From a virus: a stretch of 64,000 bases of DNA. The position numbers were made by a program, and so were the translations under genes. Numbering within the stretch: position 1 is the first letter of the stretch; each line of letters opens with the position of its first letter. The stretch lies in IMG/VR virus record IMGVR_UViG_3300047323_000138, positions 23,352 to 87,351 of that record, one strand, 5' to 3'. Shown piece after piece: positions 2,920 to 25,400 of this stretch. Below the pieces are notes generated by a model. It saw nothing but the letters and a program-made list of their open reading frames with translations. It did not search any database and was not told the DNA's origin.

Positions 2920-5130
2920 TTAAATTACCCTGTAAGTGAAGGTGAATACATGGTCACGAGCAGCGTTGGATCCAGCTTGGAACTCCATCAATGCCCTATC
3001 AGTTGTTGTATTGGCAGAGAGGGCACCAGATTGTGTAGTTTGCCCACAAGAGCTAACACCAACCAAATCACCGATAGCTCCAAGGTTGGATGTAACAGGA
3101 AGGGTCATTTCTATCGCTGTAGCACTGCCGTTGGTTGTTGGGTCAATGTTGATACGACCACTCACAGTAACCATTGTACCAATTTGAGTGAACATACACA
3201 CAGCGGCTGTCACAGCTTGGATGTTGCTAATGTTTGTGATTGTTGGTGTATATGTACTGGAAGTAATCCCAAGGTTTGTACGTGCATTTGCTGCTGTACT
3301 GGCTCCAGTGCCACCATCTGCTATATCTAGGTCAGTGATACCAGTAATGCTACCACCTGTAATGGTAACGCTATTACCGTTCTGTACAGCCATTGTACCA
3401 AGACCTAGTGTAGTCCTAGCAGATGGTGCATCCACATCATCAATCAAGCTACGACCATAAGTGGTCAGAGATGTTTCACCGTAAGCATCTACACCAGCAG
3501 AGTAGAACAATCTATCAGCCACAGTACCGAAGGTAGAGAACTGTTGTAGTGTATTATCCCAAGCCTGAACATCTGTACCAATAACCAATCCAAGATTGCT
3601 TCTAGCTGCGCTAGCAGTTGAAGCCCCTGTCCCGCCATCAGCTACAGTAATATCAGTGATGCCTGTTACAGAGCCACCAGTAATACTTACGCTGTTGCTA
3701 TTCTGAGTAGCGATAGTACCCAAGCCAAGATTAGTGCGTGCAGTAGGAGCATCACTTGCCCCAGTACCACCATCGGCAATAGTAATATCCGTAATCCCTA
3801 CGACACTACCACCTGTGATAGCCACATTAGCAGCATTCTGCAATGCCATGTCACCAAGGCCCAATGTTGCACGAGTAGTGGCAGCAGAAGTGTCATCTAG
3901 GATTGTACGTGCAAAAGGAGTGAGGACTGTTTGAGCAAAGGTATCTACACCAGTGCTATAGGTCAGTCCATCAGAGGCTGTAACTTGAGCAGCTAGAGCC
4001 GTCAGTGTAGCATCAACTGGTTGAGCACCGATAGAGGTAGTTGTGATAACCACATCACCCGTACCGCCATTGATTGTATTTACTACGTCTTGAATGGCAC
4101 TTTTACTGAGCTTATTAGGGCTCAAAAGCGTTTCTAGTTTAGTTTTGATATCTGTGGCAGAGTAGACACGATCAGTGATTACATCGTCGAAAACACCGCG
4201 TTGAATCATACTAGCGAAGTATGCACTTCCAGCCGGACTACCTTTCAAAGCTACGACATCAGCTCTAATTTCAAATTGAAGTTCAACACCCGCTGATAGG
4301 ATTACAGGGCTGTCTGTGAAATCGAATGTGTTATCACCCAACACCCAAGTAAGCCCATCAGTATCCTTCTCGAATGAGGTCTTGTTTGGGATGTATTTTA
4401 AAGCAACGCCATTACTGGTTTGACTAACTTTAATCCTGACATTAGTCATTGGAGCATAAGTGCGGAACTTAATAGCGTTGGTTCTGGCATTGTTCTGCAC
4501 AACGTACAAGAATGTCAGCGGATTGTCTGGGAGATTTGTACTGTCAATAGGCTGAGCACCAAATTCAAATTCAGGCTCAATCAAATGAAATACAGTAGGT
4601 TCAGAAGATGCAGCAGTACGTGGAGTATAGAAGTCCACAATCGTGTACTGACGATCATTAAGAAGGTTGGATATACCGAGGAAACCAGCTACTTCAGACA
4701 GCTTCAGAACATCGCCGAAGGTAACGGAGCCGCTCTCCACGCCGAAGCCGGGCGGGGCTAGAATTGTACCGTCTTCCAGTACTCGCATCCCGGAGCCAGA
4801 GAAAGTACCGTCAATAAGCTTATATGGAATCTCACCAATGGGCACTCCCGCTAAGGAGACTACTTCACCATTTGGACCTTGAACAACAGGAGTAATGTCT
4901 ACCCATTGTCCGGCAATACGTTGCATGAAGGCAGAGGTTAGCACTACATCCGTATAGATCAACCTACCCAGAAGATCGCTGTTACCATCATAAATGGCTA
5001 AGTTGGAAGGGTTGCTAGCAAAGTAGCTATCTCGTGCAGCTTCTGCTGCTGTCCTATCAGCACCCATGAAGTCATGAGTCTGTGGACCCATACGAAGGGA
5101 TCTATTAATTCTGGAATCTGTTGCACTCAT
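2920..5130 (-). CDS. Fibre-like virion protein with internal repeats
   Basis: 736 aa; three ITGGS..GITD...ADGGTGAS.A..AR.NLG repeats typical of phage fibre shafts; SD AAGGAG. Confidence 0.75.
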   Translation of the reverse strand: MSATDSRINRSLRMGPQTHDFMGADRTAAEAARDSYFASNPSNLAIYDGNSDLLGRLIYTDVVLTSAFMQRIAGQWVDITPVVQGPNGEVVSLAGVPIGEIPYKLIDGTFSGSGMRVLEDGTILAPPGFGVESGSVTFGDVLKLSEVAGFLGISNLLNDRQYTIVDFYTPRTAASSEPTVFHLIEPEFEFGAQPIDSTNLPDNPLTFLYVVQNNARTNAIKFRTYAPMTNVRIKVSQTSNGVALKYIPNKTSFEKDTDGLTWVLGDNTFDFTDSPVILSAGVELQFEIRADVVALKGSPAGSAYFASMIQRGVFDDVITDRVYSATDIKTKLETLLSPNKLSKSAIQDVVNTINGGTGDVVITTTSIGAQPVDATLTALAAQVTASDGLTYSTGVDTFAQTVLTPFARTILDDTSAATTRATLGLGDMALQNAANVAITGGSVVGITDITIADGGTGASDAPTARTNLGLGTIATQNSNSVSITGGSVTGITDITVADGGTGASTASAARSNLGLVIGTDVQAWDNTLQQFSTFGTVADRLFYSAGVDAYGETSLTTYGRSLIDDVDAPSARTTLGLGTMAVQNGNSVTITGGSITGITDLDIADGGTGASTAANARTNLGITSSTYTPTITNISNIQAVTAAVCMFTQIGTMVTVSGRINIDPTTNGSATAIEMTLPVTSNLGAIGDLVGVSSCGQTTQSGALSANTTTDRALMEFQAGSNAARDHVFTFTYRVI

Positions 5131-5548: not shown

Positions 5549-5691
5549 GCTGCCTGCTAATCAACTTGAGAGAACAAAGGTTTTTCTCTCCTCACCACAC
5601 TTGGTTGCATTACGAGGAACCACTCCGTCCAGTTCTTAAGCTGGCTAAGATTTGTGAGTCGCCAGACTCACGGGTTTCCGAACTAGGCAGC
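5549..5691 (-). ncRNA. Unclassified multi-stem structured RNA
   Basis: Closing stem GCUGCCU/AGGCAGC enclosing 3-4 hairpins, with two possible loop-tail pseudoknots; intergenic. Confidence 0.55.
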
Positions 5692-5704
5692 TCAGAAATT
5701 CTTT

Positions 5705-6109
5705 TTATTCGTCTTCATCAGGTTCAACGAACACCAACGACAAACGAGGTTTCATCTCGGACTTAATCTGTTCCGGGGTTTGTTCTTCCTCTTCAGGATC
5801 ACGCTTCCCTTCAGCACGGGCTTTGAAGTTTGTAATCTCATCGCTGCTAGCTGCTTTTTCAACGCTAACAATCGAGTTGATCACCCACTTTGCACTTGCA
5901 ACGGATTCAGAGTTAACAGTTTCGTTGTTAAGACTCTTATCAATCAAAGCTAGAGCAATATCTTCTCGTGTACGAAGCTTATCAGCCAACTCACGAAGTT
6001 TACTCTTTTTGATACGAACCTTACTATTTCCTTTCAAGTTTTGATTAGAGCGTTCCGCCCCGAATCGTGTACTTGGGCTAGGGTTTGGATTTGTAATCTT
6101 CTTGGTCAT
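5705..6109 (-). CDS. Putative terminase small subunit
   Basis: 134 aa upstream of terL; N-terminal TRF...N.KG..K pattern and helical core; assignment mainly by synteny. Confidence 0.55.
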   Translation of the reverse strand: MTKKITNPNPSPSTRFGAERSNQNLKGNSKVRIKKSKLRELADKLRTREDIALALIDKSLNNETVNSESVASAKWVINSIVSVEKAASSDEITNFKARAEGKRDPEEEEQTPEQIKSEMKPRLSLVFVEPDEDE

Positions 6110-7091: not shown

Positions 7092-9599
7092 TTATGAAAC
7101 ATAAAGGTCCCCCAAAGTGCTTGTAAAAAAGTTCCAAGTAGCATTAGGGTTTGTTGATCCAATAGGTGTAGCCTTCAATTGTGAAGAGGCGTCAATAGAC
7201 CATGTGAACGATGGGAATGTTCCACCAGCACCAGTTAGAAGCCCAACAGCACTGACAGTTACCAATTGAGGAGCAAGAGACGTGGCTCCCTTAGCTACCT
7301 GAAGGATGTAATGTGCTGTCTCAGAAGCATTTGCATCGACTTGTTTAACTGTAATGAACAATACACCGGAAAAGTTGGTTGCTGTACCATCTTGTGAAAC
7401 ACAAGTACCAACCACGTTTCCGGTGGTTGTCAGGTTCTTGGAGATTGTCTGTGATGCAGTGTTGATCCTTTTAGATGAATAGTCCCTACGTGCTGTGCTG
7501 TTCTCGTCACGATTACCCACACCAGTGATAAAATCATAGGAAGTTCCCAGCGGGACGTTAACGGTGTTATATCTTGCTCTTGCTCCTTTGGAACCCTCAG
7601 AGTCAGTGGAGATAGATATCCCAGATGCTCCAGCAACGCCTGAGTGTAGATAACAGCCCTCAACAATAGCCTTACCTTTGTTTACCCTAATACCAGACCC
7701 ATTGAATTGGTATGCTGTTACGTCTTTTACAACAACATCGGGAAGAAGCTCAAGACCTCCGGTGGGGGAGATGTCACCGGTGACATCTGCCACGTTGTTC
7801 AGGAATGCACTAGTAATCATGTAGGCATTAGCTTTACTACCTACGGCAGAGCAGTTCTCAATGCTTGCATTTTGAGCACCGTATACCGAGAACGAATGTG
7901 ATCCGGAGGTGGGGTTCCTCTCTATAATATCAACACCGCGCATGACAACATGCTCGTGGTAGCCGCCAGAGGCCGCCGCGATAATAGCCACACCTGTTGC
8001 GGAGCCTGCTGCTGGAACATCACCTACACTGAGGGCAGACGGAAGAACTTCAATATTACTGGCGATACCACACTTGTACAAACGATGAGTACCTGTGAAA
8101 GCACCAATAGTTTTGTAAGTACCTGTGATAGCATCTTCCTTGGTTTCAGCTACTTTAATAGTGTTAGCGTCAACTACAATAGCGAAATAGTAATTGGCCC
8201 GTCCAAAACCAGTAATCGCTGTGTTGTTCTGGCGGGAGTAAATTAAAGGGTAACCTGTAGTCAATCCGTGCGCTGTCAGGGTGAGAGCATTTGCGGAAGA
8301 TGTGGTAAAATCGTATTTACCTAAAGTGTATGGCTCTATACCAATAACTTCACGCATAGTGTCGGTAGAGAACACCTGCATACTACCATGATCTACGTTC
8401 CCATATTGAAGGCCGAAGTTACCGCCTTTCTCACAGATAAGTTTTCCATAGCAGTTAGTGGACGGTCTGTTATATGGATAAAAAGCACTAACGCCTACGG
8501 CTCCACCCAAAGCAGTGCCATCTGAAATTACTTTCAAATCTAGGAATAGACCATCTGTATTATCTAGCAATATACCATGTTCAGCATGAGTACCAATACG
8601 AGCTACAGTGAATCCCTTCAAGGATATGTTCTTAAGTCTTGGTCCAGTGAATGGGCTTGCAAAGAACAGCTTACCAGAAGATGGAAACTTACAATAAATT
8701 GCAGGAGAATAGCTATCATCCCCCAAGATATCCATTGAAGACCACACATGTATTGTATCAGTGATCATGTACTTCTTGTTTCTTTTAAGCTTGATTGGTA
8801 AGCCCGAAGCTTCTGCTGCAAGGAAGGCTGGCGTACAATCCGTGCCAATCTGGGTATCTGGGTCATAGTCACCAACTGCACCAAACAATTCAATAGGCAC
8901 ACGAGAGTCACCAAGTATGGAGTAGATAGTGGCTGGTGTGCCATCAAGGTCAATACCGATCAAGGCCGCGCCTTTTAAATGATCGGAGTTGTTGGATAGA
9001 TCTGCGATATCAGCTTTAGTAGAAAGAAGCCCTTCAGTATACACAGCACTAGCTTCAGCGGCATTAGCCGAATCCAAAGAATCCTGTGCAGATGTGGAAG
9101 CTTCAGCAGCCTTAGTGGTGGATACACCCGCAGAAGTACTAGCAGATGATGCACTATTAGCCGAGTTAGTTGCAGAGGTTTGACTGGCTGTAGCACTGTT
9201 TGCAGATTGAGTAGCTGACGTACTCGCATTCGTAGCACTTACAGCAGCAGCATTCTTACTAGCCAATGCAGCAGCAGCGTCAGCTGCCACTTGAGCTACA
9301 AGAGGGTCTGAATGAGCTGTTTGACCAATCATCAACAGAGCATTAATAGTTGTCTCTGTTGTATCATCTGTAATTTCAATATTACCAATGCTTGTAAATG
9401 CATGGTAATCATTTACGAATACACTTACTTTATACCAGCCATTAGGGACATCAATTTCATATGCTCCATCCACATTTGTCTTAAAATCTTTAGTGACAAA
9501 CTGGAGAACATCTGGAGATGTGTTGTTAGCTGTAATCCGTACAAGTGAATTTGAATATGGAACACCTGTAGGGGTTAGAAGAATACCTGAAAGAATCAT
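7092..9599 (-). CDS. Tailspike/tail fibre, putative depolymerase
   Basis: Lambda-stf-like N-terminus, Ala/Ser-rich linker, ELFGAVGD...DCTPAFLAA beta-helix entry motif, beta-rich body. Confidence 0.8.
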   Translation of the reverse strand: MILSGILLTPTGVPYSNSLVRITANNTSPDVLQFVTKDFKTNVDGAYEIDVPNGWYKVSVFVNDYHAFTSIGNIEITDDTTETTINALLMIGQTAHSDPLVAQVAADAAAALASKNAAAVSATNASTSATQSANSATASQTSATNSANSASSASTSAGVSTTKAAEASTSAQDSLDSANAAEASAVYTEGLLSTKADIADLSNNSDHLKGAALIGIDLDGTPATIYSILGDSRVPIELFGAVGDYDPDTQIGTDCTPAFLAAEASGLPIKLKRNKKYMITDTIHVWSSMDILGDDSYSPAIYCKFPSSGKLFFASPFTGPRLKNISLKGFTVARIGTHAEHGILLDNTDGLFLDLKVISDGTALGGAVGVSAFYPYNRPSTNCYGKLICEKGGNFGLQYGNVDHGSMQVFSTDTMREVIGIEPYTLGKYDFTTSSANALTLTAHGLTTGYPLIYSRQNNTAITGFGRANYYFAIVVDANTIKVAETKEDAITGTYKTIGAFTGTHRLYKCGIASNIEVLPSALSVGDVPAAGSATGVAIIAAASGGYHEHVVMRGVDIIERNPTSGSHSFSVYGAQNASIENCSAVGSKANAYMITSAFLNNVADVTGDISPTGGLELLPDVVVKDVTAYQFNGSGIRVNKGKAIVEGCYLHSGVAGASGISISTDSEGSKGARARYNTVNVPLGTSYDFITGVGNRDENSTARRDYSSKRINTASQTISKNLTTTGNVVGTCVSQDGTATNFSGVLFITVKQVDANASETAHYILQVAKGATSLAPQLVTVSAVGLLTGAGGTFPSFTWSIDASSQLKATPIGSTNPNATWNFFTSTLGDLYVS

Positions 9600-9631
9600 A
9601 TTGTCCCTACTGGAATAATTATTGTTTTAGA

Positions 9632-9926
9632 ATTCTTAAGCGAACTTACAGGCAATGCCTTGCAATATTCATAATGAAGAAGAACGCTTAAGAAATGACC
9701 CTGTACTAAGCCTATACCGTAAGGAGAGGTACGTTACACGCTATCAAGGTCAGAAGACTAATTCACAGGAGAGGGAATGAATAGTCTTAATGCTGTCTGA
9801 GGAAGAGGAGAGAAAGACAGCTTTTGAAGATAATGCTTTATGTAGAATTTAAGTTCTTATCGCATTATCGGTGAAACTGGAATTAGTGCTCTGCTCACCC
9901 TCCCAACCGACATTCACTTTTGGAGG
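9632..9926 (-). ncRNA. Tandem hairpin array with anti-SD (CUCUCCU) loops, predicted 3' product of the hammerhead
   Basis: Seven consecutive inverted repeats; G-U wobbles favour the minus strand. Confidence 0.65.
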
Positions 9927-9928
9927 CT

Positions 9929-9975
9929 ACGCGACCTAATAAGGTTTCGACTTATCACAAAGTCTCATCAGGCGT
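9929..9975 (-). ncRNA. Hammerhead ribozyme (type I)
   Basis: ACGC-CUGAUGA-GACUU(uguGau)AAGUC-GAAA-CCU(uauu)AGG-UC^GCGU: full catalytic core, three perfect stems; cleavage predicted between 9933 and 9932. Confidence 0.92.
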
Positions 9976-10101
9976 GTTAAATAAGTGCGAATGCTGGATA
10001 CCTACTTGCAGAGCGGTGGTATCGTACGCTCGTAAATTAATGCTGGTGTTGTTTATCTCGTCTTTATCACGAGGTGGCAGAATCCAGCAACTGCGCATTC
10101 T

Positions 10102-10362
10102 TTAACAAGTGATCTGAACAGGACTTTGAAAGTCTGTCAACTTCCACTGTTTGAAGTAGTCTGAAGGATACACCCGAGTAGGTATGTCACCAACCCCTAC
10201 GAATACTTCTTTGTTACGATCAGGTGTACGCACTGGTGTGACCTTATCAAACACAAGCTTCAAATGATCTTTAATCATCAACCATTGGTTTTCAGAGATG
10301 GTGTCTGTGTCAGATAGTTCTACGAAGCCTTGAAGCCAGTATGTGAAGCTTTCGGAATTCAT
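10102..10362 (-). CDS. Hypothetical protein
   Basis: ORF track; SESFTYWLQGFVEL...IKDHLKLVF looks like a recurrent small phage protein; tightly follows upstream ORF. Confidence 0.65.
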   Translation of the reverse strand: MNSESFTYWLQGFVELSDTDTISENQWLMIKDHLKLVFDKVTPVRTPDRNKEVFVGVGDIPTRVYPSDYFKQWKLTDFQSPVQITC

Positions 10363-22442: not shown

Positions 22443-25400
22443 CACCAGACAAAATCAAGAAACAAATAGAACTGCTCTGCTCGGACCTTGAGCGCTGCGA
22501 TAAACGTTGCCGTAAGATATCCAAAGCAATCGGCCTAGAAGATAATCATCTTATTTCTTGGGCTAGGAAAGAGGCTGAGAGTGTGTTAGAGTATATTGAA
22601 TTGTTGAAGGAGAAAGAAGGTGCTGATAAAGAGATTTAAAGAAAATACTGCCGGAAGGGACTTCTTCACAACAGATATACATGGTTGCTTTGACCTGTTG
22701 CATGAACAAATGAGGCTACATGCTTTTGATACAACCAAGGATAGATTGTTTGTAGGAGGGGACAACGCGGACAGGGGTCCATATTCAGACACAGTATTAG
22801 ATTACATCTATGAACCTTGGTTTCACAGTATTAGATCTAACCATGAAGAGATGCTAATCACTGCTTTTGAGAATCCAACAAGCCGTAACGCTTATGAGAT
22901 GCTCTATTGTAATGGTGGTGAATGGTTCTATGATTGTACACATGAGAAGCAGAAAGCTATCTATGAGGCTTTCAAGTCTTTACCATTAGCAATTGAAATT
23001 GAAAATCCTCAAGGCCTGATCGGTATCATACATGCCCAAGTTCCTATGGATGATTGGGAAAAGTTTAGAGGCATGTCTGAACAGGATCTTTACTGGAGTG
23101 GGTACGCTATTGCACAATGGTCGAGAACCAAGTATGATAAACAAGATGTAACAGATGTGAAGGGTTTGTATAAGTGTTTCGTGGGACATAGCCCAACTAA
23201 CTCAGGCGAGGTTGAACAATTAGGTAACACTTACTACTCGGATCTGGGCAGCTTCTTTCGAGATAAAATATCTTTCATTGAGATCAACTAAAATGACACA
23301 AGAACAATATTACCTTCTAGAACGACTACGTACAAACCTCCTAGACGCTGCATCTGAGCTAGAACTTCTAGGCAAACTGCCAAGGTTTACACAGAATATT
23401 GATTGGATGTTGGATGAACTTGAAGAGTATATTAAATTGCAGAAGGAGGTTGATAAATGAAAGAGAAATCAGACGGTGAGATTTATGAAGATGTTAGCCG
23501 TAAAGCTAATCCAGAGCTACATGCACAAATAGATGCTTGGATACAAAGTCTTCATGAAGGGCAACAACAGCTCATCAATGAAGATGCACAATTGATTGAA
23601 GATAATTATTGGGAGTTAATATTGAAATGAGTAATGTAAACTTTAAACCGATGGATGATAAGCAACGAGAGCAGGTGCGGCTCAAAAGGGCTGCTGACCA
23701 AGCTTATGCTAAAGAGAACTTGATTACAGATTTCAAAGACGAGCAGTTCTGGCGAGAGAATGCCTCCAAAGTGGCGCTACGCCTCCCCGGTTGGTGGATT
23801 CCTAGTAGCGAAACAAAATACATTCGACGTGCATGTAAAGCTTTAGGTGTAGATATTAATTTATTTGTGGAAAGCACAGGCTTTTCTAACTTAAATCAGC
23901 TCGTAAAGGCTAATTCTAAGTGGTCGGCTGTGGGTATGGTTGGGTTGTGTGTGGAATTTGCCATCGAAACTGGAAAGTTGGCGTAGTTTTTACCCTGCCA
24001 ATCAACGAAAAACTAAAATTCATCTCCGTACACAGGGGTATACTAAAATGACAATTCTTGCTATATATTTAATCGGTGTAATCTTCACATTCTATTATGA
24101 GACAGAGGATATCTTCCTTGGATCGCTCCCTACATCTATTCAAGGGACAATTATATTCTCTTTATGTTGGCCCTTTAGCATAATCTTCGGAGCTGCTATC
24201 ATGTGGAAAGAGATTATTAAGAAACGTGGAGAGAAGAAATGACTGCTAATCGCACACTTGCTGAACAACGTGGATTATCTGAGTCCCAAATCCAAGAGAT
24301 TGATCGTCTGCACGAACATCTTGACAAAACAATAAACTATTTCATTGAACAAGGCTGGACACAGGCACGAGAAGATGAAATTCATGATATCGAATACCTC
24401 CTACAACAAGCTTGGGGATTTCCTAAAGACTGTGGATATCATCGTTATGCACACCAATATGCTTTTGTCTGTCAGTGGTTTGGTCGGACATTCAAGTGTG
24501 TAGAAACTGGGAATCAAATTACGTTAGGGAAGGACATCTACGAACGTCAGTATATTCCTTTCGGTAATTGTGCAATTGACTTGGGTGTCTTGAATGGCTA
24601 CTCTCGTCGTATTGGAAATATGGAGGAAATTAAGAAATGACCCAACAATATTCACCCGAGAAACAATTGATCAAAGACTTCATCCGCTACATTTCTGATA
24701 ATCATAAGTGCTGTGTGGTGAGTTTTCCAGATGAGTTTGCTGCTGACAGCTATTTGAACTACAAATTTGTCAATACGTGTGAATTGCTGGATGAATTTAT
24801 TAGGGAGAGAAAGACATGAGTTGGGTTCAAGTAGATGAAAAGACTGCTGAGTGGTTGTTACGACAACGTAATGACGACAACATCCTATACTCTTCGAACT
24901 CTTTGCACTGCTGGGATGAGATATTCACAGCAGGAGGTTGTAGATTTAAGGTGGAAGGTTCGTTCTACTCAGATGAAGTATCAGTCTATAAGGAAGAACA
25001 ACTATGAACCAAACAATTGAAGAAAGATTCCAATCCATAGAAGACCAACTCAAAGAGCTTCGCAAGGAATTGGAGAGTGACCTTGCGAAATATAGGGATA
25101 GTAGTTATTTAATTAAGAGGGAGAAATCATGAACAAAACAGAACTCATTGGAGTGGCAATAGCTATAACACTTATGCCTTATATTATTGGGGTGTGGTTA
25201 GTTTACAACATCAGGGGTGGGAAATGAATCAGAAAGCTATTGAAACTTATGCGGTACATCTCTATAGAACACGAAAGCCTTGGTCTGATCCGTATGCATA
25301 TTACATTGAGTACACTGGTAACTATTATGGAGAAGACTCCGATGGAACAAGGATCTACAATTGGCAAGAATACGAACAAGAGTCTAGCGATGCTGTGGAT

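Follow-up and report, generated by a model that had tools for sequence, protein, structure and literature searches.

A type I hammerhead ribozyme predicted to lie within a conserved, doubly pseudoknotted RNA of unrelated phages

Results

The window analysed here is a stretch of 64,000 nt (positions 23,352 to 87,351) of IMG/VR record IMGVR_UViG_3300047323_000138, the 87,351-bp genome of an uncultured virus with 127-bp direct terminal repeats and a GC content of 40.8%. Tail proteins relate this phage to Otagovirus-like Pseudomonas phages, it occurs in soil and rhizosphere metagenomes, and no tRNA genes were found in its whole genome. On the minus strand, sigma-70-type promoter-like sites are present at approximately 10831-10800 and 10551-10523, and genes of 68 aa, 44 aa and 86 aa (the last at 10362..10102) precede, in that order, the element described below. 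Directly after the element come approximately 290 nt of hairpins with UCUCC-rich loops, followed on the same strand by a tail-fibre gene (9599..7092), an HNH gene, a terS-like gene and the large terminase gene. No terminator was predicted on the minus strand between the 86-aa gene and the tail-fibre gene. A preliminary description had placed a hammerhead ribozyme in this intergenic region and termed it late-strand; the ribozyme does share the strand of the flanking genes, but the late assignment is uncertain, the nearest upstream promoter-like sites being of the sigma-70 type.

The hairpin series, with UCUCC/CCUCC-rich loops at 9633-9880 of the minus strand, precedes late genes and was also observed at phage loci L012, L013, L016, L071, L133 and L014, the copy in L013 giving a sub-threshold Rfam match to the alphaproteobacterial ar14 RNA (38.8 bits, E 9e-4). 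In the close relatives L012, L013, L016 and L071 the hairpin RNA is present and the hammerhead absent. The only contig obtained from an RNA library spans 9631-9795, which is the hairpin region and lies outside the ribozyme. At the position of the hammerhead element, L016 (approximately 3330-3560) has a tRNA-like sequence ending in CCA, with no ARAGORN call, and after it a stretch of approximately 80 nt closed by GAAGUGU/ACACUUC. The related contig L071 also contains a group I intron at 5556-5821 (RF00028, 88.3 bits, E 2.6e-21).

Reading of the sequence, a descriptor scan and covariation identified a complete type I hammerhead at 9975..9929 of the minus strand, and its letters, core, perfectly paired stems I-III and GUC cleavage triplet are exactly those given in the preliminary description. 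Stem I consists of four pairs (ACGC/GCGU, 9975-9972/9932-9929) and leads into the core sequence CUGAUGA (9971-9965). Stem II has five pairs (GACUU/AAGUC, 9964-9960/9953-9949) and a 6-nt loop (UGUGAU), and is followed by the core sequence GAA (9948-9946) and by the four pairs of stem III (ACCU/AGGU, 9945-9942/9937-9934) with a 4-nt loop (UAUU). C17 lies at 9933, the predicted scissile bond is C9933/G9932, and the 3' product would begin with G9932. Pairs G10.1-C11.1 and A15.1-U16.1 both occur and all three stems are free of mismatches, the proximal stem I being only 4 bp long.

The motif was found once in the window by a descriptor scan of both strands. With all stems of at least 4 bp it occurred in none of 300 first-order Markov simulations of the window, and on relaxation to 3-bp stems it occurred in 6 of 300. 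This chance control would by itself be weak for a scan of many windows; conservation decides. An Infernal search with the Rfam hammerhead models, the check proposed in the preliminary description, had a mixed outcome, with no match for the locus at the gathering score in Rfam 15 but sub-threshold hammerhead matches in a permissive search. These comprised a partial match to Hammerhead_3 (RF00008; 22.7 bits against a cut-off of 48.5), a match of the window hammerhead to RF00163 (17.1 bits against a cut-off of 34) and a match of the copy in locus L009 to RF02275 (23.4 bits against a cut-off of 52). Because Rfam hammerhead matches of such low score were also obtained in 13 of 14 control genomes, a sub-threshold match proves nothing alone. 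For the window and its relatives, gathering and permissive searches of Rfam 15 yielded only sub-threshold hammerhead matches and no family for the flanks, and BLAST queries with the window locus and the L014 copy found nothing relevant among 50,697 phage records. The Rfam shortfall concerns a database score rather than a structural feature, the models having been trained on other subgroups, and the window hammerhead, which carries every structural feature of the class while scoring below the Rfam cut-offs, is on structural grounds a genuine type I ribozyme.

Loci encoding the 86-aa protein family were searched and yielded two further copies, L009/L010 and L014. L009/L010 is nearly identical to the window copy, with one base of loop II changed from G to A and a C-to-U substitution by which stem I gains a fifth pair. 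L014 is distant, all three stems being changed yet paired (CUAAGA/UCUUAG, GCCGG/CUGGU and ACUAUG/CAUAGU). In both L009 and L014 tRNA genes begin 6-15 nt past the conserved block. A fourth copy, L133, has U7 changed to C and lies approximately 190 nt behind a TTGACA-17-TATAAT promoter of a type that drives tRNAs directly in relatives. The element is absent from eight of ten near-complete related genomes, which marks it as an accessory, patchily distributed module. The L009-type variant was found in soil and rhizosphere DNA sequencing runs, and subfamily-specific patterns applied to viral, metagenome and genome collections returned only the four close copies and none in prokaryote genomes. The Otagovirus phiPsa374 has a large tRNA array at the syntenic spot and no hammerhead by Rfam, and no hammerhead was found in the region of PaP3 upstream of its tRNAs.

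Two features of the neighbouring sequence were observed in the close relatives. The near-consensus sigma-70 promoter TTGACA-17-TATAAT, followed by AGGTACTGTGAA, is present in L133 (approximately 1460-1500, reversed), L291 and L293, and its cargo is the hammerhead element in L133, tRNAs directly in L293, and approximately 330 nt of RNA and then tRNAs in L291. In L009 (2505-2700) a tRNA-Pro and a tRNA-Leu lie between the element and CCAGUUUCACC. The window junction reads ...AAUU-CCAGUUUCACC, and L009 has the CCA end of the tRNA-Leu ahead of an identical GUUUCACC; the minus strand of the window (9876-9895) retains a CCA there, so that the tRNAs appear to have been cleanly deleted.

Members beyond these relatives were sought in 120 loci drawn at random from IMG/VR by means of a generic type I pattern. 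A structurally valid hammerhead was present in 86 of the 120, many of which had several and few of which were near tRNAs. A hammerhead-anchored descriptor demanding four scaffold helices around the hammerhead (Ha, Hb, Hc and Hd, described below) matched none of 360 shuffled-flank controls and one of the 120 sampled type I loci, L320. This locus is 63% GC and has no genes in common with the window phage, and its helices follow the same order, with both linkers (AAGUA and GUGA) kept and with Ha and Hb altered in a compensatory way. A pattern built from the features common to L320 and the window retrieved 13 true members together with obvious chance matches. A covariance model of the three closest copies scored the distant copies at 68-111 bits and detected nothing else in the DNA searched, and a descriptor combining linkers and helices found only the 16 members in 3.7 Mb of fetched loci. 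The pattern yielding most members required the hammerhead core, and no hammerhead-less copy of the scaffold was found in the 3.7 Mb of loci, most of which had been fetched with patterns requiring that core. The carriers belong to at least seven unrelated phage groups with GC contents of 39-63%, most have no genes in common with the window phage, and by this sampling the family spans unrelated soil and water phages.

Two search tools were abandoned. An unanchored double-knot descriptor gave thousands of matches, the top ones in AT-rich or coding sequence, and was replaced by the hammerhead- and linker-anchored versions, and CACUUAUU was rejected as a family marker because of a chance occurrence in L083, where it lies in coding sequence ahead of an unrelated hammerhead. 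As a separate observation, type I hammerheads proved very common in IMG/VR contigs, and arrays of four to seven of them a few hundred bases apart were often seen (L307, L368, L390, L410 and others).

Conservation was assessed in an alignment of 16 distinct sequences, namely the window copy and 15 others. The core is CUGAUGA in 13 copies and CUGACGA in three, the change falling at position 7, where the hammerhead core tolerates any base. GAA is present in 16 of 16, the A15.1-U16.1 and C15.2-G16.2 pairs occur without exception, and H17 is C in eight copies, A in five and U in three, and in none G. Stems I-III are 92-100% paired, with compensatory changes at two of four pairs in stem I, four of five in stem II and two of four in stem III, and both RNA ends exit via stem I, the defining trait of type I. 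The first six bases of the predicted 3' product are GCGUAG in 10 of the 16 copies. Some members have a mismatch at 10.1-11.1 (U.U in three, A.A in one) and may be slow ribozymes.

These data bear on whether the motif might have arisen by chance, have decayed to inactivity or simply form part of a 47-aa ORF (10098..9955), a reading to which the sub-threshold Rfam scores and the overlap of the ORF with the 5' part of the motif lend some colour. It is extremely improbable, because the motif was absent from all 300 simulations and its core is kept intact in 15 other, diverged copies while every stem covaries with compensatory changes. The ORF itself, which begins with ATG on the minus strand and overlaps the 5' half of the larger element, has no PHROG match, is frame-shifted in L133 by an extra T and lacks a counterpart in L014; it was rejected as a coding candidate and is most likely spurious. 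The element is real and conserved, and almost certainly functional.

The conserved RNA around the hammerhead extends over 136 bases, 10023..9888 of the minus strand. Its four scaffold helices form two interlocked H-type pseudoknots (Ha with Hb, and Hc with Hd), the hammerhead being situated in the loop of the inner one, and the complete helix order Ha5-Hb5-Ha3-Hc5-[hammerhead]-Hd5-Hc3-Hd3-Hb3 is present in the window copy. Ha pairs GAUACC (10018..10023) with GGUAUC (9997..10002) through six pairs, which are 100% paired in the 16 sequences and compensatory at four of six. The loop of this hairpin holds the 5' strand of Hb, GCUCUGC (10008..10014), which pairs with GCAGAGC (9888..9894) at the 3' end of the conserved element to make pseudoknot 1. 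All seven Hb pairs are 100% paired and four are compensatory, the central pair being GC, UA, AU or CG, and in L133 the similarity stops a few bases beyond the 3' strand. Hc is a distal extension of stem I in which CAUUCGC (9987..9993) pairs with GUGAAUG (9911..9917); its seven pairs are 95.5% paired in the 16 sequences and six are compensatory.

Hc is separated from stem I by an internal loop of 11 x 11 nt. The 5' side of this loop, ACUUAUUUAAC (9976..9986), contains an ACUUAUU that the four closest copies share and that is not constant in more distant members, and a tertiary contact between this side and loop II is possible. The 3' side holds CCUCC (9922..9926), the 5' strand of Hd, which pairs with GGAGG (9899..9903) and so makes pseudoknot 2 with Hc; Hd is 98.8% paired across the 16 sequences and all five of its pairs are compensatory. 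Two linkers, AAGUA (10003..10007) and GUGA (9895..9898), are each present in 16 of 16 distinct copies.

Taken over the 16 distinct sequences, 98% of 603 pair cells are paired, compared with 35-37% when partners are slid by 1-3 columns, and compensatory changes occur at 27 of 38 pairs. Because a covariance model fitted the alignment to the nested helices, these are favoured; Ha and Hd lie outside that model yet are supported. The four closest copies alone have 152 of 152 pair cells paired and 16 of 38 pairs compensatory. A likeness of the outer 7-bp helix to a tRNA acceptor stem was considered and rejected, there being no equivalents of the D-arm or T-arm and an ACCA after the element only in L446; it stands as a speculative lead.

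For the window copy, the minimum free energy structure given by ViennaRNA (-43.7 kcal/mol) is an inactive hairpin, the core being paired to the region of stem III; the nested hammerhead fold is at -28.5 kcal/mol in an energy model that does not count pseudoknots. This raises the idea of a conditional ribozyme, one in which cleavage would answer a signal by exchange of an inactive fold (a AAGUAGGU/ACUUAUUU helix plus pairing between core and stem III region) for the active knotted one. As well as being the minimum free energy fold of the window copy, the inactive structure has both strands of its AAGUAGGU/ACUUAUU pairing invariant in the four closest copies. ACUUAUU is not kept in distant members, however, the competing pairing of core and stem III region is not conserved and is absent from L014, and all covariation backs the single knotted fold and none the alternative. 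The AAGUAGGU/ACUUAUUU switch helix was dropped for want of support in the wider family, and regulation of this kind is quite unlikely.

Upstream of the conserved element a 5' extension (10024..10101) starts with GAAUGCGCAG right after the stop codon of the 86-aa gene, contains a branched hairpin domain and ends in GAGC-GUAC. Its structure is a prediction, the covariation covering 10023..9888 only. The block is identical in L009 and in L133, though the upstream context in L133 differs, and the GAAUGCGCA motif and the AGAGC junction recur ahead of the element in L320 and L446. It was further observed that the motif at the head of the extension, GGUGAAUGCGCAG(GCUGA)UGCGC, also heads a second, unrelated-looking structured stretch, situated approximately 130-150 nt downstream of the elements in L434, L442 and L449 and just after them in L320 and L446. 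A GCCGG...CCGG hairpin followed by CACCACA likewise recurs in several carriers. The carriers seem to possess bays for modular small RNAs.

The surroundings of the element differ among the phages. It lies approximately 30 nt ahead of a terS-like gene in L445, L435 and L452, and ahead of tRNAs in L014, L009 and L446, the tRNAs being 6-164 nt downstream. In L440, L449, L442, L434, L441/L447 and L320 a terminator follows within approximately 50 nt; the one in L449 was confirmed by a terminator scan and the rest were read by eye, L320 and L441 not being flagged by the scan and L440, L442 and L434 lying outside it. In L449 the element has a promoter-like site approximately 140 nt ahead of it and a terminator beginning 8 nt past its end, an arrangement that looks like a stand-alone small-RNA gene, and the presence of terminators soon after the element in several phages suggests the same.

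Discussion

The element at 10023..9888 of the minus strand is a member of a conserved phage RNA family in which a type I hammerhead sits in a scaffold of two pseudoknots and probably serves primarily to mature the knotted RNA. Transcription would start at the sigma-70-like promoters that precede the small accessory genes, and the hammerhead would fold during transcription and cut between C9933 and G9932. Hammerhead cleavage 3' of H17 produces a 2',3'-cyclic phosphate and a 5'-OH, which are predicted here for the end of the 5' piece and for G9932, respectively. Stem I, Hc and Hb would together place 18 bp (4, 7 and 7, respectively) across the cut, so that the pieces would probably remain joined, as a knotted RNA of two pieces with a nick, and not separate into two free RNAs; a pseudoknot-free cofold calculation gave a net association of only about -5 kcal/mol. 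As the knotted RNA is the only constant product of the family, its maturation is read as the primary role of the ribozyme.

In the window phage the same cut would also split the message of the 44-aa and 86-aa genes from the UCUCC-hairpin RNA and tail-fibre leader. The preliminary description had made this processing of a longer transcript the function of the hammerhead, with the downstream hairpin RNA or the tail-fibre mRNA beginning at 9932. Cutting of a longer transcript accords with the strand of the flanking genes and with the lack of a predicted terminator up to the tail-fibre gene. Definition of such a 5' end as the purpose of the ribozyme fits poorly with an RNA that appears self-contained, with the terminators found elsewhere and with a hairpin RNA that relatives possess without the hammerhead. 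Approximately 45 nt of knotted scaffold would still be on the predicted 3' product, held to the 5' product by the 18 bp, so that this anatomy does not predict a hairpin RNA cleanly freed at 9932. Severing of the downstream RNA may be a side effect in the window phage.

The general form of that proposal is a hammerhead that acts as a transcript-processing signal for the 5' end of whatever RNA lies downstream, with the surrounding helices as a folding clamp suited to any sequence context. Its targets would be the UCUCC-hairpin RNA or tail-fibre mRNA in the window phage and tRNA precursors or terS mRNA elsewhere. Leader-type contexts do always put the element upstream of a same-strand feature (tRNAs, terS or the hairpin RNA), the stretch from it to the tail-fibre gene is free of predicted terminators, and a role of phage hammerheads in dividing long transcripts into pieces of gene length has been proposed (Perreault et al. 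2011, PMC3088659). The terminator 8 nt after the L449 element and those read by eye in L440, L442, L434, L441/L447 and L320, on the other hand, would leave nothing downstream to release, and the invariance of AAGUA, GUGA and much of Hb across unrelated phages is more than a generic clamp needs. Furthermore, the scaffold is missing from 119 of the 120 phage type I hammerheads sampled, and L012, L013, L016 and L071 have the hairpin RNA without the ribozyme. A processing signal of this kind is thus a tentative alternative, with perhaps a one-in-four claim, to maturation of the knotted RNA itself.

A more speculative extension, and an improbable one, is that the product is a self-nicking, two-piece, trans-acting RNA in which the hammerhead is retained to set a 2',3'-cyclic phosphate and a 5'-OH within a compact, tRNA-sized knot. 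With such ends the RNA could be a decoy for, or a trigger of, those defences of the host that cleave tRNAs, or enzymes that repair RNA. Anticodon nucleases leave these same ends on broken tRNAs. If true, such a role would explain both the travel of the element with phage tRNA genes and the invariance of its linkers across unrelated phages.

Hammerheads have been known in phages since 2011. The present ribozyme resembles the type I hammerheads of bacteria, prophages and phages (RF00163, clan CL00010; PMC3088659) in its core, three-helix junction, open stem I, an H17 that is not G, and an intergenic site in a phage genome. In the usual type I hammerheads stem I does not continue as it does here, through a large internal loop into a pseudoknot helix, with a second pseudoknot closing the whole. 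Frequent pseudoknot contacts between loops I and II have been described for phage and prophage hammerheads, which were proposed to cut polycistronic RNAs (PMC3088659). The usual phage pattern is of several ribozymes flanking genes, an arrangement described in 2011 (PMC3088659) and matched by the IMG/VR arrays above, whereas the present element occurs as one copy per genome.

HDV-like theta ribozymes located beside phage tRNAs have been proposed to trim tRNA 3' trailers (Kienbeck et al. 2024, PMC10879173). Like these (PMC10879173), the present family consists of small ribozymes, predicted to be self-cleaving, that are found in tailed phages near tRNA genes and for which RNA maturation independent of host nucleases is proposed. 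It differs in belonging to another ribozyme class, in lying 5' of the tRNAs with at least 45 nt of scaffold between cut and tRNA, and in often having no tRNA nearby. Compared by eye with the HDV-like topology (P1-P2-P3-P1'-P4-P2', a nested double pseudoknot cut at the 5' end of P1), the scaffold has no P3 hairpin and only the five nucleotides AAGUA in that place, and no Rfam HDV family matched 9700-10200 at E up to 10.

Another arrangement of hammerhead and tRNA was observed in L428, a 126.8-kb contig, where a type I hammerhead on the minus strand (approximately 1501-1540 of the reversed locus) has its predicted cut exactly before the first base of a tRNA-Tyr. The acceptor strand of the tRNA takes part in stem I of this hammerhead, and a knotted scaffold is lacking, in contrast to the present family, in which GCGUAG and the scaffold follow the cut. 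The L428 arrangement would make a tRNA 5' end without RNase P.

No description of a hammerhead inside a conserved double-pseudoknot RNA was found in the literature searched, and Rfam 15 has no such family. The type I hammerhead is itself known; what is new is the architecture, a hammerhead embedded in a knotted scaffold. Standard Rfam annotation misses this hammerhead subgroup entirely. In the window phage the element marks the predicted split of an accessory-gene transcript from the leader of the tail-fibre and packaging genes. Across the family, the ribozyme is a fixed part of a larger conserved pseudoknotted RNA rather than a free-standing cutter, and the whole is a candidate phage small RNA that would be matured by its own ribozyme and whose halves may stay joined after the cut.
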